From: Octopus vulgaris
Taxonomy: Eukaryota
Direction of reading: 5' to 3'
NCBI GenBank assembly: GCA_951406725.2
Contig: OX597832.1
Location: 16,988,001-17,052,000 of the forward strand
DNA: 64,000 nucleotides
Shown here: piece after piece, positions 12,576-53,322 of the stretch
Layout of the letters: every line of letters begins with the position of its first letter
How positions within the stretch are numbered: position 1 is the stretch's first letter
Program-made: the position numbers and the translations under genes
The notes under the pieces: generated by a model
Told to the model about the DNA's origin: nothing
What the model saw: the letters and a program-made list of their open reading frames with translations, nothing else
Database searches by the model: none

Positions 12576-13152
12576 TATTTCTTTATTGCTCACAAAGCGC
12601 TAAACATAGAGGGGACCAGCAAGGAGAGACGGATTAAGTCGATTACATCGACCCCAATACGTTGCTGGTACTTAATTTATTAACCCCAAAAGGAGGAAAG
12701 GCATAGTCGACCTCGGCGGGATTTGAAATCAAAACCTAACGGCAGACGAAATACCTATTTCTATTTCTTTTCTACCACAAGGGGCTAAACACAGAGAAGA
12801 CAAGCAAGGACAGACAAACGGATTAAGTCAATTATATCGACTCCAGTGCGTAACTGGTACTTAAGTTATCGACGCAGAAAGGATGAAAGCAACGTCGACC
12901 TCGGCGGAATGAAATACCTATTTCTTTTCTACCCACAAGGGGCTAAACACAGAGAGGACAAACAAGGACAGAGAAACGGATTAAATCGATTATATCGACA
13001 TCAATGCGTAACTGGTACTTATTTAATCGGCCCCGAAAGGATGAAAGGCAAAGTCGACCTCGGCGGAATTAGAACTCAGTACACAACAGCAGATGAAATG
13101 CCGCTAAGCATTTAGCCCGGTGTGCTAACGTTTCTGCCAGCTCACCACCTTA
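12576..13152 (-). mobile_element. Tandem array of three tail-A SINE units with a single 5' head
   Basis: Junctions gaaatacc|tatttc at 12755/12756 and 12918/12919. Head only at the right end. Confidence 0.9.
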
Positions 13153-14012
13153 GGCGTTTCTGATCATGAGCAGGAGTGGTTGGGGAGCATCATAGACATA
13201 TATTGAGAGGAATTCTTTGCGGATTACATAAATGTAACCAAAGTAAAATTCAAAGGGAATATTAGCCATTTTTAATACTTACTTATGGTAAGCAAATAGG
13301 AACGAACAGTTGCTACAGAAATACAAAAATCTTGTTATGCGGTGTAATTCAAGGCAATAATTTCAAAATTGCACAAAGGACACAGAATTGAAAAGGTGAA
13401 CACTCTACGTAAGAGAATTTCAGTGATTAATTGTTAATTGCTTTTACTGACGCTCCAACAAAACCAAAATTGTTCTCAGTGGTTTTTAATTCCGAACATA
13501 AAATGAACATAAAATATATTGACACGTTTTCTTCATCGCTCTACTAAATCTGCTAATCCTCTGTGTACTTGTCTTGTTCTGGAAGTGCTAGCAATGATTC
13601 TTGTTTTTTTCTTTGATATATAAGACACTGAATGATTAATCATTAACCTTTAGGGGATTTCAGTTTTACATGTGACTTCTTTATTTGGAAAACTAACTAA
13701 AACGAAGATTAGGTCGCTTTTAAGACGTCCAGTGATAGCATGGAATTATTACGGCTACGTACACAAACCGGCATACATACATATCTAACAGGCATTCACA
13801 TATAAACAGATACACGTTTGAATATACCACCTGCATATTCACATACTTTTAACCATATAAAAACGTTGGTATACACTTGCACACATATGTGATCATATGC
13901 TTATACACACGAATTAATATATACACTTACAAATGTATACACAACCATGTACATGAATAAATACATACGGGAATATATATTTATTCACCCGAAGATGGTA
14001 AATACATTATCA

Positions 14013-14402
14013 TTTTTACTATAGACACAAGGCTTGAATGTTTGGGGGCGGGTGTCAGTCGATTAGATTGACCATAGTGTTTAACTGCTACTTAATTTAT
14101 CGACGCCGAAAGATTCAAAGGCAAATTCGACCTCGGCGGATTTTGAACTCAGAACGGAGCGATGGGCGAAATACCTATTTCTTTACTACCCACAAGGGGC
14201 TAAACACAGAGGGGACAAACAAGGACAGACAAACGGACTAAGTTGATTATATCGACCCCAGTGCGAAACTGGTACTTAATTTATCGACCCCGAAAGAAGG
14301 ATGAAAGGCAAAGTCGACCTCGGCGGAATTGGAACTCAGAACGAAACGGCAGACGACTAAGCATTTCGCTCGGCGCGCAAACGATTCTGCCAGTTTGTCG
14401 CC
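14013..14402 (-). mobile_element. Chimeric SINE dimer (tail-A unit joined into a tail-B SINE)
   Basis: Junction gaaatacc|tatttc at 14175/14176. The left unit has a different tail (ttttactatagacacaaggcttgaatgtttggggg). Confidence 0.85.
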
Positions 14403-19141: not shown

Positions 19142-19537
19142 TTTTTCTAATTTAGGTACAAGGTCCGAAATTTTGGGGGAAGTGGTGAGCAGTAGATTAG
19201 ATCGACCCTAGTACGCAACTGGTACATAATTTATCGACCCCGAAAGGATAAGAGGCAAAGTCGACCTTGGCGGAATTTGAACTCTGAACGTAAAAATAGA
19301 CAAAATACCTATTTCCTTACTACCCACAATGGGCTAAAAACAGAGAGGACAAACAATGACAGACAAACGGACCAAGCCGATAATATCGACCCCAGTGCGT
19401 AACTGGTACTTATGCAATCGATCCCGAAAGATGAAAGGCAACGTCGACCTCGGCGGAATTTGAACTCAGAACGTAGCGGCAGACGAAATACGGCTACGCA
19501 TTTTGCCCGGCATGTTAACGTTTCTGCCAGCTTACCT
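19142..19537 (-). mobile_element. Chimeric SINE dimer (tail-A unit in tail-B SINE)
   Basis: Junction aaaatacc|tatttc at 19309/19310. Confidence 0.85.
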
Positions 19538-19570
19538 CATTAAAGATAGTATTTACTGAAGGGTCTTTTG

Positions 19571-19952
19571 TTTTCTACTCTAGGCACAATGCCCAAAATT
19601 TTTTAGGGGAGGTCCAGTCGATTAGAACGACTCTAGTATGCAACTGGTACTTAATTTATCGGCCCCAAATGGATGAAAGTCAAAGTCGTCCTCGGTGGAA
19701 TTTGAACTCAGAACGTAGCGGCAGACGAAACACCTATATCGTTACTACTCACAAGGGGCTAAACACAGAGAGGACAAACGGATTAAGTCGATTATATCGA
19801 CCCCAGTGCGTAACTGGTACTTAATTTATCGACCCCGAAAGGATGAAAGGCAAAGTCGACTTCGTCGGAATTTGAACTCAGAACGTAGCGGAAGACGAAA
19901 CAACGCTAAGCATTTCGACCGGCGTTCTAACGATTCTGCCAGCTCGCCGCCT
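19571..19952 (-). mobile_element. Chimeric SINE dimer (tail-A unit in tail-B SINE)
   Basis: Junction gaaacacc|tatatc at 19734/19735. Left tail ttttctactctaggcacaatgcccaaaatttttagggg. Confidence 0.85.
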
Positions 19953-30399: not shown

Positions 30400-31072
30400 T
30401 CCTGGTTTCAAATGGCTAGCTATTACAGGGAGGGTGTCCAGTTGATTACAACGATCCCAGTGATTCATTGGTATTTATCTAATCGATCCCGGAAGGATGA
30501 AAAGCAAAGTCGAGCTCGGCAGAATTTGAATTCAGAGCATAAGGACAGACGAAATACCGATAAATATTTTGCCAGGTGTTCTAATGACGCCGAAAGGATG
30601 AAAGGCAAAGTAGACCTCGGTGGAATTTGAACTCAGAACGTAGCGGCAGACAAAATACCTATTTCTTTACTACCCACAAGGGGCTATCTTCAGAGAGGAC
30701 AAATAAGGACAGACAAACGGATTAAGTCGATTATATAGACCCCCGTGCGTAACTGCTACTTATTTAATCGACCCCGAAAGAATGAAAGGCAAAGTCGACC
30801 TCGGCGGAATTTGAAATCAGAACGTAGCGGCAGACGAAATACCTATTTCTTTACTACCCACAAGAGGCTAAACACAGATATGACAAACAAGGACAGACAT
30901 AGGTATTAAGTCGATTACATCGACCCCAGTGCGTAACTGGTACCTAATTTATCGACCCCGAAAGGATGAAAGGCAAAGTCGACCTCGGCGGAATTTGAAC
31001 TCACAACGTAACGCAGACGAAATACCGCTAAGCATTTCGCCCGGCGCGCCAACGTTTCTGCTAGCTCGCTGC
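30400..31072 (-). mobile_element. SINE cluster: old copy plus a partial unit plus two tail-A units
   Basis: Junctions at 30659/30660 and 30843/30844, spaced 184 bp. Confidence 0.85.
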
Positions 31073-46870: not shown

Positions 46871-46978
46871 AAATTTATTGGTATCAAAGTTTGGCACAAG
46901 GCCACCGATTTCGGGGCGTGGGGTGGATTAGATTGATTGCATCGACCCCCAAGCTTCAAATGGTATTTATTTTATCGC

Positions 46979-47206
46979 GGTGAGCTGGCAGAATCGTTAG
47001 CACGCCGGGCAAAATGCGTAGCCGTATTTCGTCTGCCGTTACGTTCTGAGTTCAAATTCTGCCGAGGTCGACTTTGCCTTTTATCCTTTCGGGGTCGATT
47101 GATTAAGTACCAGTTGCGCACAGGGGTCGATGTAATTGACTTGATCCGTTTGTCTGTCCTTGTTTGTCCTCTCTGTGTTTGGCCCCTTGTGGGTAGTAAA
47201 GAAATA
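46979..47206 (+). mobile_element. Tail-A SINE nested antisense in an older related SINE (host ~46878-47335, minus)
   Basis: TSD ggtatttattttatcgc at 46962-46978 and 47207-47223. Confidence 0.9.
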
Positions 47207-47535
47207 GGTATTTATTTTATCGCCTCAAAAGGCGAAGTCGAACCGGGCGGCATTAGATATCAGAACGTTATGTCGGAGGGAATGCTGTTAAGCATTTGTC
47301 CGGTACAGTAACAATTCTGCCAGCTCGCAGCCCCATTAATGTGTCGTAGTTTTTAGACAAACGTTGTGATGTTGCTGGTGTAGTACAACCTAGAAAATCC
47401 GTGATTGGTTTCGATTCACATACAGAGCAATTTCGTTTTCCCATATTACGTTTATGCTTTTATGAAGGCATAAATATCTCGCTATCCTATTGTGTTACGC
47501 ATATCAAGTTTAAGCCAATTTTTTACGTACATATA

Positions 47536-47903
47536 TATTTCTTTACTACCCACAAGGGGCTAAACACAGAGGGGACACACAAGGACAGACAAAAGGATTA
47601 AGTCGATTACATCGCCGCCAGTTCGTAACTGGTACTTAATTTATCGACCCCGAAAAGATGAAAGGCAAAGTCGACCTCGGCGGAATTTGAACTCGTAACG
47701 TAACGACAGACGAAATACCTATTTCTTTACTACCCACAAGGGGCTAAGCAGAGAGGGGACAAACAAGGACAGACAAAGGGATTAAGTCGATTACATTGAC
47801 CCCAGTGCGTAACTGGTACTTAATTTATCGACCCCGAAAGGATGAAATGCAAAGTCGACCTCGGCGGAATTTGAACTCGGAACGTAACGACAGACAAAAT
47901 ACG
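47536..47903 (-). mobile_element. Two headless 184-bp SINE units (tail type A) downstream of the LINE
   Basis: Units start at 47536 and 47720 (tatttctttactacccacaagggg...gacgaaatacc). They contain a B box (gagttcaaattcc on minus) and a core gactttgcctttcatcctttcggggtcgataaa resembling the Meta/MESC SINE domain. Confidence 0.9.
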
Positions 47904-48150
47904 AATTTCTTTATTGCCCACCGGGGGCCAAACATAGATATGGACAGTACAACTGATGGGATCAGTGAATCGATATGATTTTACATAAATGTGACATCAA
48001 AAATAAAATACAATACATAAAAATCGAATGGAATACACAGTACAAAAACAATACAAATGAAGCGATGATCAAGTTACGCTCCGATCCCACAAGCCCCGAT
48101 CTACCGCTGATACCTTTTTATTTTTCCTTTTTTTTTTTTTCCTCGTCTAT

Positions 48151-48737
48151 TCACACGGTTCCTTGCACGCACAACACTCGTGCAACATACTTCCATCTCT
48201 TTCGGAACGTACACTCTGACAGACACCTCTTCTCCAGCCACAGTTTCCTTTTCAAATGAAAAGAAAAAAAGGATCGTAAATTGTCACCAGAGATAAAGTT
48301 GCCTGTCTTAATTCCTTTTATCCTAGTCTTCCATACTGCCTCTTTTGCTATTGCTACAACCGTGAGAAAACAATTCTTACCTTCGTTCGTTAGAACTCCC
48401 TGTGGGTCAATTTTTATAATTGACTCAGTCGGCAGCCGTACTCTTCCTTCGCCGGACAACAGATGTTCAGCATAAGCCCACATTTCAGTTATCTCCGGAC
48501 ACTGAACAATAGCGTGAGGGACGGTTTCCCTGTCCCCCCCCCGCATCTTGGACAGGTCGGCGACTGACGTTTACCATGTCTTGCGAGCTTATCCCAAACG
48601 GGCAAGGCACCTCTGTAGCATTGCCAGGTTAAGGACTTTTGGAAGTTGTCCAACGTTCTCAACCCGAATGTACGATGAAAGAAGCTGTCCAGTTGAATAA
48701 ATCCGAGACCTAGAGTCGACCCCAGGCCATCGTCGCA
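48151..48737 (-). pseudogene. C-terminal part of LINE ORF2 with CCHC zinc finger, separated by one stop and one frameshift
   Basis: Reading on in frame past the TAA at 48738-48740 gives CDDGLGSTLG...WQCYRGALPVWDKLARHGKRQSPTCPRCGG. A shift in the G-run near 48535-48542 then gives DRETVPHAIVQC...FRKRWKYVARVLCVQGTV*. Together these form the L1-type C-x2-C...H-x4-C knuckle. Confidence 0.85.
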
Positions 48738-51554
48738 TTAAGACTCTACCAACCCACTATATAAAATCCGTGTGGAACCCCCACCGCTGGCGTTGCCCGA
48801 GCGCCGGAACAGCAAGAGGGCCTTACGGCACTCTTTATGCCACTCACTCGACCTCGGTCTACGAGAACACCAGGTTTCCTGTTCGCAAAAACTCTTGAAC
48901 TCAGGGAACATTTGTCTGGCCAGTGGAGACCACACCCGTTCACTATCCAGGAGAATCCAGAGGTGCCTCAACCTCAACGCATGTCTGCGCATCATTAACC
49001 AAGGCATCCCTAAACCTCCATTTAAAGGCTTTTGACAGCAGACAGAGCGTTTCACAAGTGGCGACCTGCCCTTCCACAAAAAGCGAAAGAGCTGTCTCTC
49101 CAACCTGATCAACCACGAATCCGGACAGGGCACGACGGTCAGGCGGTAGGTAATGACCGATGCGATAAACACATTGGCCACTTCCGCCCTCCCTTTCAGG
49201 GATAGCCACCGCCAAGACCAGGTCTTGACTACTGCAGCCACCCTGCTCAATACCTCCGTCCAGTTCTTCTCTATCTGGAGGCCTGGTCCAAACCAGACTC
49301 CCAGCAACTTAACCGGTCCCTCCGTCCAGCGCCTAACAACACTGTCTGAAGGCATCGACTTGCCAACCCAGGTGCCGAGCTGCAAGCCGACCGATTTTTC
49401 CCGGTTAATCTTTGCTCCTGCTACCTCCTCGTAAGCCTCAATAGTCTTACCTACTTCACGTAGGCGTGCCACTGTGGTTACACCGATAGTGATATCATCC
49501 GCGAAAGCCGTAACAAACTCCTCTAGTCCTGGTTCTCTCGGGATGCCACTCAACCTTTGCAGTAATGGCTCGAGAGCCATCACATACAAAAGTGGTGAAA
49601 GCGGACATCCTTGACGAACCGAGCGTCTGATGCAGAACGGCTTCGAAAGGAAACCGTTCACCCGAACTATCGAGTCAATGTTGTGGTACAAAGCGATAAA
49701 CCACCTGAGGAAGCCAAGGCCCAGGCCAAACCGCGCAAGTACAGTCGCTAGGTATCGATGGTCAACCCTATCAAAAGCTTTAGACTGGTCCAAATGCACC
49801 ATTGCCCCACCTTTGCCAGATTTATTACCAAACCTCTCTATGGTATAGCGAATAAGATGGAGGGCATCCTGAATGGTTCTGCCTGGGATGGCACATGTCT
49901 GTGCCTCCCCGACTATACCATTCGCGACACGCGCCAACCTTTTTGCTAGAACCTTGGCCAAAATCTTCACTTCTGCGTTTAACAGAGTGATGGGCCTGAA
50001 ATTCTCTAGAACGTCCCCCTTGTCCGGGTCCTTTCTGACCAACGTCACTACTCCCCGGCGCACAGATCTGGGGATAAACCCATTCTGTTTCCAGTTCGCG
50101 TACACGTCAGTCAGTAGTTGCCCGAACAAGTCTGGCATACATTTATACAGCTCGTACGGAAGACCATCAAGTCCCGGTGACTTACCCGCTTTACAATCGA
50201 CCAAAGCCTCTATCATCTCCTCAGGTGTGATTGGCCCTTCGCAAGACTCCGCATCCGACCCCGAGAGGCACGGCAGCCCGGTAAGAAAGTCCTCGAGGGC
50301 TCTCCCACCACCAGGACCGCCGTCACCCCCGAACAGCTGGGCGAAGTACTCCCGAAAGACCTCACACATTTTCTCGGGTTCGTTTATCAAGACACCATTT
50401 TGATTCGTCAAAGACCGTATAGAGGAACTATTTCCTTGCCGAGCTTCCACCACTCGGGCCCATCCAGCGGCTTTGATTCCTTCACTTCCCATTGCACGTA
50501 ACTTAGCTCTGGTAATACTTCCCATGTGGTGGGCTTCAAGATGCTGGTTTAACTCCAGTCTTTTCACCCTCGCTTGGTCTGTATTACCAGTCCTCCAGGC
50601 TTCTTCTAGTTCCTTAACTAGACCATCTCCTATTTTACGTCCCTTCTTAGCTAAACTTATGCTAAACCTAATAGACTCATATTTGATGGCTCTTTTTAGG
50701 GCGTACCACCATTTGTTATTAATGATGGTACCTGTTAATGCCCTCTGTATTAACATCTTGTTCCGCTTTCTGTACTCCTCAATCGCCAAAAGGGACGTAT
50801 TGAGTTTCCAGTAGCCAGATCCCTGTCTATGCATCTTATCTACCGTCAGTTTACAGGTAACCATATTGTGGTCACTGTAGCTGACTAGAAAAAACTGTGG
50901 ACACTCAACTATGGACTTATCTTTTTCTCTAATTAAAATCCTATCTAGATATGTTCTGGTAGACCCGTCACTATTTGACCACGTCCACTGTGGAGTGTTC
51001 GGGTGCTCCAACCTATATGGATCTGCTAGCTGAAATTGACTTAGCAGATCCCGAAAGCCTGGGTTACATTTTCTGTTCATGTTCGAGTTTGAGCCAACAC
51101 AATCTGTGTGCGCTGCACATATTGTATTAGAGTCTCCTAACACTACTAGTGAATGCGACGTGGCTAGGAACTTCCCTAGGCCACGAAAATATTCAGTTTG
51201 CGGGCCAATAATGTTTGGTGCGTAAATAGCGACCAGCCTGATTGTCTTGCCACAACTGAATGTCAAGTCGAGAACGACCAGCCTGCCTTCTGGGTCAGAA
51301 AAAAACAACTTTTTCTCGGCTACCCGGTTTCTTTTTAGTAGGACCAACACCCCACCCCCACCTCCCGCCCGACTCGGAGAAACGTATTTCTCGTAGCCGT
51401 TCAGGAGGGGGAGCAGATCTCTTGGCCCCTTCACCCGGGTTTCCGTTGCAACAATTACATCCAAATTTCTCGACCTGATGTCATTCAGAAAGCGTCCTTG
51501 CTTCCAGCCTGACAACAGGCCATGAACATTTAAACAACCAATGTGAATAGCCAT
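48738..51554 (-). CDS. LINE ORF2: apurinic-like endonuclease + reverse transcriptase (ends at a premature TAA)
   Basis: APE motifs CLNVHGL, ATETR, VAIYAPN, VLGDSN, YLDRIL, SDHNMV. Tx1/L1-type GYWKLNTSLL. RT motifs KSPGLDGL, NFRPITLLN, DQSKAFDRVDH, SVRQGCPLSPLLY, AFADD, KLLGVWF. ATG at 51554. Confidence 0.95.
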   Translation of the reverse strand: MAIHIGCLNVHGLLSGWKQGRFLNDIRSRNLDVIVATETRVKGPRDLLPLLNGYEKYVSPSRAGGGGGVLVLLKRNRVAEKKLFFSDPEGRLVVLDLTFSCGKTIRLVAIYAPNIIGPQTEYFRGLGKFLATSHSLVVLGDSNTICAAHTDCVGSNSNMNRKCNPGFRDLLSQFQLADPYRLEHPNTPQWTWSNSDGSTRTYLDRILIREKDKSIVECPQFFLVSYSDHNMVTCKLTVDKMHRQGSGYWKLNTSLLAIEEYRKRNKMLIQRALTGTIINNKWWYALKRAIKYESIRFSISLAKKGRKIGDGLVKELEEAWRTGNTDQARVKRLELNQHLEAHHMGSITRAKLRAMGSEGIKAAGWARVVEARQGNSSSIRSLTNQNGVLINEPEKMCEVFREYFAQLFGGDGGPGGGRALEDFLTGLPCLSGSDAESCEGPITPEEMIEALVDCKAGKSPGLDGLPYELYKCMPDLFGQLLTDVYANWKQNGFIPRSVRRGVVTLVRKDPDKGDVLENFRPITLLNAEVKILAKVLAKRLARVANGIVGEAQTCAIPGRTIQDALHLIRYTIERFGNKSGKGGAMVHLDQSKAFDRVDHRYLATVLARFGLGLGFLRWFIALYHNIDSIVRVNGFLSKPFCIRRSVRQGCPLSPLLYVMALEPLLQRLSGIPREPGLEEFVTAFADDITIGVTTVARLREVGKTIEAYEEVAGAKINREKSVGLQLGTWVGKSMPSDSVVRRWTEGPVKLLGVWFGPGLQIEKNWTEVLSRVAAVVKTWSWRWLSLKGRAEVANVFIASVITYRLTVVPCPDSWLIRLERQLFRFLWKGRSPLVKRSVCCQKPLNGGLGMPWLMMRRHALRLRHLWILLDSERVWSPLARQMFPEFKSFCEQETWCSRRPRSSEWHKECRKALLLFRRSGNASGGGSTRILYSGLVES

Positions 51555-51565
51555 CACTTACCTGT

Positions 51566-52813
51566 TTAATTATGATTGTCCGGTGGAGGGGGACCCTCCA
51601 CCTTTTTTTGATCCAGGGTCGGAGGTGGACGGTCTTGGGAAATAGATTTGTCAAAATCCCGTCTCACCACCGACACAGAATTATCAGGTGGAGGGTGAGT
51701 CTCCACCTTTTCCTTTTCTCGCGGGATCGGAGCTGGTAATCCATGAAATATCGACTTGTTAAAATCTAATCTCAATGAAGATACAGTCTTTCTGTACTTA
51801 TTTTGTAGAATTCTATAAGTCTTATTTGAGACTTCATATATGTCGTAATTGATAAATTCCTCTGAAAGGTTATCAACTTTTTTTACAGTCTTTATGAGTT
51901 GAATGTCTCTCATGAGCTCAGTATCTTTAGTGTATACGGCTATTATGCCTTTTTCTTCTTTTTCTCTTCTGGCAGTCTTTTTTGGTCGTTGTTCTGTAGT
52001 AGTCGCCGCTCTCGGCTGGGTTGCTGGTTGTATTTTTCTTTTGTTTGTTGTTTTTTTCCCAGCTGTTTCTTCTTTATCTTCTTCCTCTTTGTCTTTTTTC
52101 TCCTCTTCCTCCTCTTCTTCATTTTCCTTGCAGTTCCTTCGAATGTGTCCTAATTGACCACATAAAAAACATCGAGGTTTTCGGCCCTCAACAAACACCA
52201 CGAGGTTCTCCTCCCCTACCTCAATTGTCTCAGGAATTGTTTGAATTATTTTAGGGTCCGCTTGAATGAGAAGATTAATTGTTTGACCATCCCAGCGTGG
52301 GTTTTCCGTAGCGGTAGCCTGGAGGAGAGTAATTTTTTCTACCTCTTTGATTAGGACTGCCGCCAACAACCACATAGGTTCGACCTCTGGCGGGACCCTT
52401 GTAATTTTTATTCGCGACGTCCTCATCCCCATATAATAGGGTATTAACTCCACGTCGTTCGTTTTCAACGTTTCAACTGAGTTCTTGTGTGCTTTTTCTT
52501 TATTGGTGAACCTTACTTCCACCGTTCCGAATTTTTTCCTCTTCTCAGAAATACTACGTCGCCCAATATTGGCTTTAAGCACTTTTCTATTTTCTCTTCT
52601 GACATTCTTTCAATTTTTCTTTTTTGTAGACAATATGTTTTGAAAATTATTGTTTTTTTGCTTTTCTTCCTGTAATAACTTTTGCGGAGGTTCAGTTTTC
52701 ACACCTTTGTCAGTTATTTCCATCATTTTGCTGTATTTCATAATTTCGCTTTTATTCGTCGACAGTATCTGGGTTCCACCCCCAGCAGCCAACGCAAAAC
52801 ATTTTTTTTCCAT
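51566..52813 (-). CDS. LINE ORF1 (nucleic-acid-binding protein with CCHC zinc knuckle), interrupted by one in-frame TGA
   Basis: CFLCGQLGHIRRNC knuckle followed by an acidic/basic low-complexity region. Track ORFs 52610-52813 and 51566-52582 are in the same frame, separated by TGA at 52610-52612. The true start is uncertain. Confidence 0.8.
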
Positions 52814-53259
52814 TTTTTGGTTCTATCTGGATGCTAGGCACATCAATTATTCTCTTCGACACAATGCCTTTGTTCTCTGGCAAAGTCGGAAACTCTTCTG
52901 GTGAAAGTTCTGACGAGCTCTCAGACACATCTCCAAAAATATCAAATATATTATCGTCTCTGCTATTCCTTCTTGTAGCGGGGAAACCCCTATTTCCTTG
53001 TCTGTAGTTGGATCCTCGCCGGACATGTATTTCCTCCTCTCAACAGGAGAAACAAGTATTTCTGCTCCAACAGTAGGCTCCATGCTAGACGACATTCTTC
53101 CCCCCAAAGGGGGAATGAACAACGCGTGCTACCACAAGCACTAAGTGTTTTCAATTGAAAACTCCAACAGTTAAGTTATTCAACAGTTTAACAAGAAACA
53201 ACAGTTGTTAACAATATTAACACCACGAAACAGCAAGTCTTACTTCACGAACACATGTG

Positions 53260-53322
53260 CGACAGACAAAATACGGCAACGCATTTCGCCCGGCGTGCTA
53301 ACGTTTCTGCCAGCTCGCCGCC
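53260..53322 (-). mobile_element. Displaced 5' head of the SINE interrupted by the LINE
   Basis: Minus strand ggcggcgagctggcagaaacgttagcacgccgggcgaaatgcgttgccgtattttgtctgtcg matches the heads of intact copies at 28412 and 39612. Confidence 0.9.

Follow-up and report, generated by a model that had tools for sequence, protein, structure and literature searches.

A long interspersed element (LINE) of Octopus vulgaris inserts into the head of a short interspersed element (SINE), almost always at one site and in one orientation. We describe it from a 64-kb window (64,000 nucleotides (nt) of contig OX597832.1, assembly GCA_951406725.2, positions 16,988,001 to 17,052,000), where a full-length copy splits a SINE on the minus strand, and from a search of the genome (2.8 Gb, 227 contigs). 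The LINE inserts into SINEs that were already there, and the preference for the target, in its site, orientation, strength and restriction to a single lineage (lineage A), is directly observed. Two SINE families are involved, SINE-A with a Tx1-type tail and SINE-B with another tail, which have the head and the body up to about position 166 in common. We consider it likely, with a probability of roughly 0.7, that lineage A targets the head word GTATTTCGTCTG and that SINE-A borrows the lineage-A machinery.

Window features, in positions of the window:
53276..53322, minus: SINE head, the target, positions 1-47, with the A-box-like motif TGGCAGAAACGT at 53312-53301
53259..53275, minus: SINE positions 48-64 at the LINE 5' junction, the apparent 5' copy of a target-site duplication (TSD); across the family largely a LINE-borne target copy
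47904..53258, minus: full-length LINE of 5355 nt, assigned to the L1 group (Tx1-like); a defective copy of a family with about 55-70 young copies
51566..53095, minus: first open reading frame (ORF1), frameshifted, its start set from copy L114; open piece 52432-51566 with a CCHC zinc knuckle (PF00098, E 4e-5)
48151..51554, minus: ORF2, with predicted APE endonuclease (PF03372), reverse transcriptase (PF00078) and C-terminal Cys/His motif; stop at 48740-48738 and a later frameshift
47904..48150, minus: LINE 3' untranslated region (UTR), its last ~43 nt SINE-tail-like (82% over 50 nt including the junction); AATAAA at 47915-47910; junction without poly(A)
47888..47903, minus: target copy at the 3' junction, SINE positions 48-63 (direct reading)
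47719..47902, minus: SINE-A body and tail, unit 1, positions 49-232, with the B-box-like motif GAGTTCAAATT
47536..47718, minus: SINE-A unit 2, joined to unit 1 at G49
46960..47223, plus: free SINE-A monomer with a 17-nt duplication starting GGTATT, a dispersed insertion at a target-like word
30440..31072, minus: SINE array with two G49 junctions (window reading)
19191..19951, minus: two SINE-A/SINE-B dimers joined at G49 (window reading)
12576..14402, minus: two SINE arrays with three G49 junctions (window reading)

Insertion into the SINE head

On the minus strand the SINE head (53322-53260, positions 1-63) is followed by a single C at 53259, the LINE (53258-47904) and the SINE again from position 48 (47903), so ordered that the 16-mer CGTATTTTGTCTGTCG stands at both LINE ends (53275-53260 and 47903-47888). 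A preliminary description of this DNA had placed the LINE about 47 nt into the SINE, in the same orientation and between its A- and B-box-like motifs, and direct reading agrees; the motif names are our assumption, read by eye against consensus motifs. It had also placed eight SINE 3' ends of the window on the nucleotide of the LINE 3' junction, and all eight are indeed joined to G49, with AAAGAAA ends at 47722, 30846, 30662, 19737, 19312, 14178, 12921 and 12764 (minus strand). One of these tails lies within 47536..53322, and the tail at 12764 has a 6-nt repeat ahead of the junction. The LINE that it called full-length is complete in length, but the copy is broken by the ORF2 stop and the ORF1 frameshift. 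An outer duplication around the host SINE array was looked for at the window copy and none was found.

A set of 3' ends free of selection by score was formed from all 71 exact genome matches to the terminal 27 nt at the LINE 3' end, every one of which was read. Sixty-six continue into a SINE body at position 48/49 (one pair among them is a segmental duplicate). The other five comprise a SINE with a LINE-like tail (L063), a copy placed at a related LINE's 5' end (L073) and three copies off target (L070, L087, L091). The 12-nt target is matched at 10 or more letters by 18 sites in the window, or 1.4e-4 per position and strand; against such a chance rate the enrichment for SINE heads, proposed from the window, is strong genome-wide and the 3' flanks are not random. 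When 40 of 297 candidate ends were scored, the target word followed in all of the best 30 and a SINE body in 29 of these. At the 5' side, a pattern search gave 55 young junctions, and the 47 distinct ones examined all carry head bases 48-63 with at most three mismatches.

Among 40 older copies, chosen by protein similarity, 25 lie in SINE bodies, 10 lie outside and five are without a detected end; the ten are six basal relatives, two copies on the 5' ends of related LINEs and two off target. A tree of ORF2 C-termini, comprising only families of this genome and unnamed outgroups, joins the targeting copies in one ladder-like branch with a support of 0.996, with the basal relatives and four sister families outside. 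Insertion at G49 was found in none of seven basal relatives, in none of 20 loci of other sister families (one without an end) and in none of 29 ends of the sister family B. By its sequences the LINE thus appears to be a sequence-specific non-LTR (long terminal repeat) retrotransposon, the majority of copies lying at one site of one multicopy target.

The SINE was present before the LINE. Downstream SINE bodies are 91.8% alike (maximum 95.5%) as compared to 99.2% for the LINE ends (20 loci; 10 of 30 were excluded for deletions, truncation, SINE-B bodies or duplication), and SINE heads are 90.0% alike as compared to 99.3% for the LINE (26 loci). Since the flanking bodies and heads are far more diverged than the LINEs, the SINE was there first at each site. 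This decides against a composite of head, LINE and body that moves to random sites without any targeting, a model to which we give next to no credence and which was rejected on this divergence. What speaks for such a unit is that head, LINE and body lie inside an exact outer duplication of at least 10 nt in 13 of 26 pairs, that part of the head sequence is LINE-borne, and that the sister copies L019 and L020 have four body variants in common over about 90 nt. It is further contradicted by the variety of targets (SINE-A, SINE-B, internal array junctions and the 5' ends of related LINEs), by 5'-truncated copies down to about 40 nt that sit between head and body, and by headless copies without a duplication that would mark a transduced unit (exact search within 700 nt).

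Several observations on individual copies can be added. The pair L116/L117 (the same copies as L019/L020) lies 1.26 Mb apart and has four minor alleles in common next to the four variants at the start of the body (~90 nt), while the outer flanks differ; we ascribe this sharing to read-through co-conversion or gene conversion. A related LINE, about 65% alike in ORF1, starts with a variant of the target word, and its 5' end carries lineage-A copies stacked on it (L073, L130, L179); older sub-lineages with other 5' UTRs likewise open with a target-like word. A 6.45-kb tandem duplication on contig C3 (~153.11 Mb) carries two LINE copies (L006/L010), and at L122 SINE bases 12-96 form a triple tandem repeat beyond the LINE end. 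The LINE family is present at high identity in runs X1, X7, X15 and X17, under three organism labels; contigs from X1 and X7 (two labels) span the head-LINE junction, and the stop at window position 48740 is not common to three of these four runs.

The apparent duplication and the junctions

The preliminary description took the 16-mer at both LINE ends as a true duplication, given the variants that its two copies share. Bases 49-63 were compared in 37 full-length loci with both ends, with 11 newly found 5' junctions kept outside this pair test. The two copies are identical in only six loci and differ in 31. Position 61 is T in 24 of the 37 5' copies and in four target copies; pairwise (n=36, one locus dropped for a deletion) T is restricted to the 5' copy in 20, shared in three, and three pairs combine C in the 5' copy with a different base in the target. 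As 28 of the 37 LINEs deviate by only 0.13-0.84% from the column majority, later mutation does not account for this discordance. T61 is an allele carried by the LINE, and a true 16-bp TSD is refuted. Beyond position 61 two variants are shared (both at position 55, one of them in the window copy), 16 are found only in the 3' copy and eight only in the 5' copy, and for the window copy the shared T55 is the sole variant informative for a duplication.

The LINE, then, carries a copy of the target at its own 5' end. The uniform 16 nt are never seen at truncated copies in SINE heads, where either 0-7 nt are duplicated or up to about 15 nt, and in one case about 40 nt, are deleted. L270 and L273 retain bases 48-63 though the head upstream is replaced by a SINE tail or deleted; for L270 a later SINE insertion could alternatively explain the replaced head. 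A short true duplication may overlap the LINE-borne 5' copy. On the LINE tree T61 and C61 show only a weak age pattern, as the young burst is star-shaped. A parent-daughter relation between the window copy and L103, considered for their common head variants, was rejected: they have no minor LINE alleles in common.

At the 3' junction the inserted element may bring in target bases as well. L099 and L075 show C48 although the base of their target was A or G, and the SINE copy L235 has GGTAT at its 3' junction although its target reads GGTTT. An AATAAA stands 8 nt ahead of the junction and no poly(A) is inserted. We infer that the LINE RNA reads through into the target copy and could pair with the nicked strand; R1Bm provides a parallel for such read-through. 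Because read-through RNA would carry target bases across the junction, the nick cannot be placed to one base.

These data fit a mechanism in which lineage A, as an APE-bearing, Tx1-like member of the L1 group, would recognise GTATTTCGTCTG in the tRNA-type head and insert in front of it by target-primed reverse transcription, with a nick at head position 47|48 or 48|49. Its transcript would start with a copy of head bases ~48-64, and annealing of the cDNA end to the target would give the uniform, TSD-like 5' junction, as has been proposed for co-transcribed R2. Cutting of the transcript just past the terminal AATAAA, within the target copy, would leave a 3' end able to pair with the nicked strand. 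SINE-A, mainly its TAGT tail subtype, would borrow this machinery, with about half of the copies entering SINE heads at G49, which would build single-headed arrays, and the remainder entering GTATT-like words elsewhere and founding new targets. The preference may have arisen on the older sister SINE-B, with SINE-A becoming both client and main target later.

SINE arrays and the probable drivers of SINE-A

The SINE is short, non-coding, present in high copy number and flanked by variable duplications of 8-20 nt. An exact G49 junction follows at least 21,034 of the 65,244 exact SINE-A (TAGT) tails. In a sample of 40 non-exact tails, drawn from the initial 2.9 Mb of a single contig, 13 are G49 junctions with mismatches, so that as a rough estimate about half of the SINE-A copies sit at G49. 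A duplication is detectable for 14 of the remaining 27 sampled tails, and five of these 14 start at a genomic GTATT (p ~1e-8), which suggests that dispersed copies have the same preference in a looser form. In dimers of SINE-A and SINE-B the upstream A unit is the less diverged in 17 of 22 cases (p 0.004), and no double head was found among 146 head hits. A tRNA parent of the head was sought with ARAGORN (0 genes) and Rfam (no tRNA match), and the folding z-score of the head is -0.95. Octopus SINEs that already bear names are OK, OR1 and OR2; OR2 is cited in PMC4758252. Four SINE-A tails (L225, L228, L231, L232) run into two sequences other than SINE-A, twice each, starting GGTAC or GGYAT; these are probably other repeats offering a target-like word.

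Which LINE moves SINE-A was judged by tails and by destinations. Over 44 tail positions the TAGT subtype matches family B at 37.1, young lineage A at 33.0 and old lineage A at 35.4, and the YAAT subtype matches family B at 39.2 and young lineage A at 36.0. The SINE-A tail probably came from family B, which probably also moves the YAAT subtype. Young family-B copies favour sites starting AGAA, with two of 29 at head position 14/15 (one being the query locus), and position 15 is joined exactly by 1,199 YAAT SINE tails. Destinations were counted in fetched DNA, a set enriched for LINE-flanking arrays: 54 of 95 TAGT tails lie at G49, three at position 15 and 38 elsewhere, versus seven, eight and 25 of 40 YAAT tails. 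The simplest reading of these shared sites would be a SINE with two drivers, of which lineage A serves G49, and mobilisation of SINE-A by lineage A is likewise suggested by the common junction.

The tail matches, the AGAA preference with its SINE tails at position 14/15, the variants that neighbouring units have in common and one array of ten units can also be read in another way: SINE heads are the target of the LINE, but SINE-A is chiefly a client of family B or other sisters, and G49 arrays arise by RNA-guided priming, where a read-through 3' end pairs with the target, or by tandem duplication, so that no loop links driver and client. We think this unlikely. Family B and the other sister families are absent from G49 in the loci given above, the TAGT subtype goes to G49 far more often than YAAT in the set so enriched, 13 of 29 adjacent pairs have no private variant in common, and dispersed TAGT copies begin at genomic GTATT.

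The view that lineage A both targets the head and moves SINE-A has nevertheless to be weighed against a number of observations. The SINE-A tail is nearer to family B than to lineage A; with family B the likelier donor, trans-mobilisation by lineage A is argued from the shared site alone. Pairs of two SINE-A units show no significant order of age (16 vs 11 of 29, p 0.09). Of 154 private variants in adjacent units 31 are common to both, as compared to 2.8% for random pairs, thus some junctions or arrays stem from local duplication or conversion. The lack of double heads requires homology-guided 5' joining, a proposal with which it fits. Variants outside position 61 are few, hence they do not fix where the LINE-borne segment begins. 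Two observations are unexplained: off-target truncated LINEs and dispersed SINEs have duplications of 8-20 nt whereas on-target truncated LINEs have short ones, and some 14 of the older truncated copies are flanked by a SINE body on their 3' side yet lack a head at the 5' junction (L061, L066, L067, L069, L077-L079, L081-L083, L092, L096-L098; outer duplication not detected). For the latter, 3' transduction was considered, and no marking duplication was found (exact, at least 9 nt, within 700 nt).

The order of events was approached by using the identity of the LINE 3' UTR to the window copy as a crude age proxy. Young copies (at least 97%, n=38) lie in SINE-A 33 times and in SINE-B three times, old copies (below 87%, n=37) in SINE-A eight times and in SINE-B 18 times (p 9e-7). 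The old copies being mainly in SINE-B, targeting predates the dominance of SINE-A. This bears on the proposal that the LINE targets the very SINE it mobilises, the SINE creating the niche of its driver. A SINE is targeted and the junction is common to both elements, but the term "own partner" is not sustained, the family-B tail being closer; a feedback loop would be secondary and not the origin of the niche, with the oldest copies mostly in a SINE with a different tail. A true 16-bp TSD made by an exclusive LINE-SINE pair, for which one may cite T55 in both copies of the window element and of L103, off-target copies with duplications of 13-16 nt and the fact that SINE-A holds most young LINEs, is therefore very improbable, given the non-identical copies, the discordance at position 61, the old copies in SINE-B and the tail that is closer to family B.

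Conceivably, though at somewhat less than even odds, the whole forms a self-feeding system of driver and client. The LINE would have its only niche in the promoter region of a SINE mobilised by it, every new SINE copy would add a site, both RNAs would carry terminal target copies that direct priming and the joining of the 5' end, and the head (positions 15 and 49) and the two tail subtypes would be split between two sister LINE lineages. If true, it would account for the single-headed SINE arrays of this genome, which number in the tens of thousands.

Three side observations concern these SINEs and tails. Ten SINE junctions at G000:C1:4676262-4677963 are spaced by 185 nt, a satellite-like expansion of the 49-232 unit. 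A second hotspot in the same SINE head lies at position 14/15, inside the A-box-like motif (L086:4500-4575; L184). Tail chimeras occur in both directions (L063, L137, L169), as a SINE ending in a LINE tail and as LINE 3' UTRs ending in a SINE tail.

Classification and known systems

In the window copy ORF2 is open for 938 amino acids up to the stop at 48740-48738 and its C-terminal piece is separate; an open ORF2 of 1133 amino acids is kept in two of 21 full-length copies examined. Compared to solved structures, ORF2 is closest to LINE-1 ORF2p (E 8e-64, residues 5-867), with R2 at only 4e-20. From its N-terminal APE domain and a reverse transcriptase nearest to L1 ORF2p, the LINE is classified in the L1 group of APE non-LTR retrotransposons, and two ORFs, 5'-truncated copies and target-site alterations, also L1-group traits, are present. 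The Tx1 clade is known for a CCHC zinc knuckle in ORF1 and the absence of a poly(A) tail, and both features are found here. Among Atlas clusters the top named one for the endonuclease is 'Transposon TX1 149 kDa protein family' at 0.96, a lead only, since an L1 ORF2 cluster scores 0.96 equally. On this architecture and weak Atlas lead we call the LINE Tx1-like.

Site-specific LINEs usually rely on a fixed host target, such as rDNA, snRNA genes or microsatellites, or on an unrelated transposon; the sequence-specific or stacking elements Dewa, Mutsu and Zepp are known to target host RNA genes, simple repeats or themselves. The closest precedent, in the parts of the source consulted, are the crocodilian Tx1-Mar LINEs and SINEU (Kojima 2015, PMC4494074), whose partnership was argued from a common target, a dispersed transposon. 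There too a Tx1 LINE and its presumed client SINE prefer the same dispersed transposon, SINEU-3 insertions occur in tandem, some Tx1-Mar 5' ends are small-RNA-derived and common to the SINE, and co-transcription with the target is discussed. The target there is, however, a third element, Mariner-N4_AMi, and is regional (around two positions), whereas in octopus the LINE enters the tRNA-type head of the SINE itself at a single nucleotide, so that every new SINE copy supplies another target, and the LINE 5' end copies the target.

Insertion of an APE-type LINE into another transposon family is also cited in the same passages (PMC4494074) for Xenopus Tx1L in Tx1D and crocodilian Tx1-9_AMi in Harbinger and Tx1-8_Crp and Tx1-4_AMi in LTR elements; those targets are not LINE-moved, while the octopus SINE has a tail of the LINE's group. 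R2 and its SIDEs in 28S rDNA, as portrayed in the sections consulted of PMC3414825, are similar in that a site-specific driver is accompanied at its site by non-autonomous clients, and in full-length 5' junctions that are uniform where truncated ones are variable; RNA-borne target sequence may also aid R2 integration (as cited in PMC4494074). They differ in the restriction-like endonuclease, in the essential host gene as target and in that SIDEs are internal deletions and not Pol III SINEs (PMC3414825). Keno and Utopia (U2 snRNA) and Kibi and Koshi (microsatellites) resemble the octopus LINE in sequence-specific insertion into a multicopy target and in stacking at the regenerated site, but the excerpts consulted describe host RNA genes or simple repeats as their targets and not a client SINE (PMC4494074, PMC4640811, PMC3812793).

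Already known are thus, from the part of PMC4494074 consulted, Tx1 elements that target other transposons and SINEs with the target of a Tx1 element; distinct here is the SINE head as target. No LINE targeting a SINE head was found in the literature searched, with Repbase, Dfam, subscription papers and repeat-library supplements outside its scope. Octopus repeat papers (PMC13282606, PMC8967140) count L1-Tx1 and SINEs, and the passages on repeats consulted are silent on targeting. It is quite possible that the LINE and SINE families are already annotated in repeat libraries.

A LINE that targets a SINE of its own tail group would turn one-way parasitism into a possible mutual dependence, and SINE-head targeting would be one way in which a great many tandem SINE arrays could form. 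Cut sites should be inferred from apparent duplications only with caution, as the LINE-borne pseudo-TSD shows. Endonucleases of the related families are about 65-70% identical, yet the targets differ; with near relatives differing in target and the specificity mapping to one branch, these families offer a natural series for the origin of APE specificity.

Minor observations on the sister families are as follows. In four others, pairs of copies have the same downstream sequence (L141/L146, L145/L157, L151/L156, L167/L168), which suggests that each has its own repeat target. One sister-family LINE (L147:6748-7145 in element orientation; G000:C29, ~20.06 Mb) lies next to an intact histone H2B-like gene, identified by eye in translation, with the LINE end about 17 nt ahead of the start codon. 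Two more near-identical hits lie on C29, and a preference of this family for histone clusters is possible.

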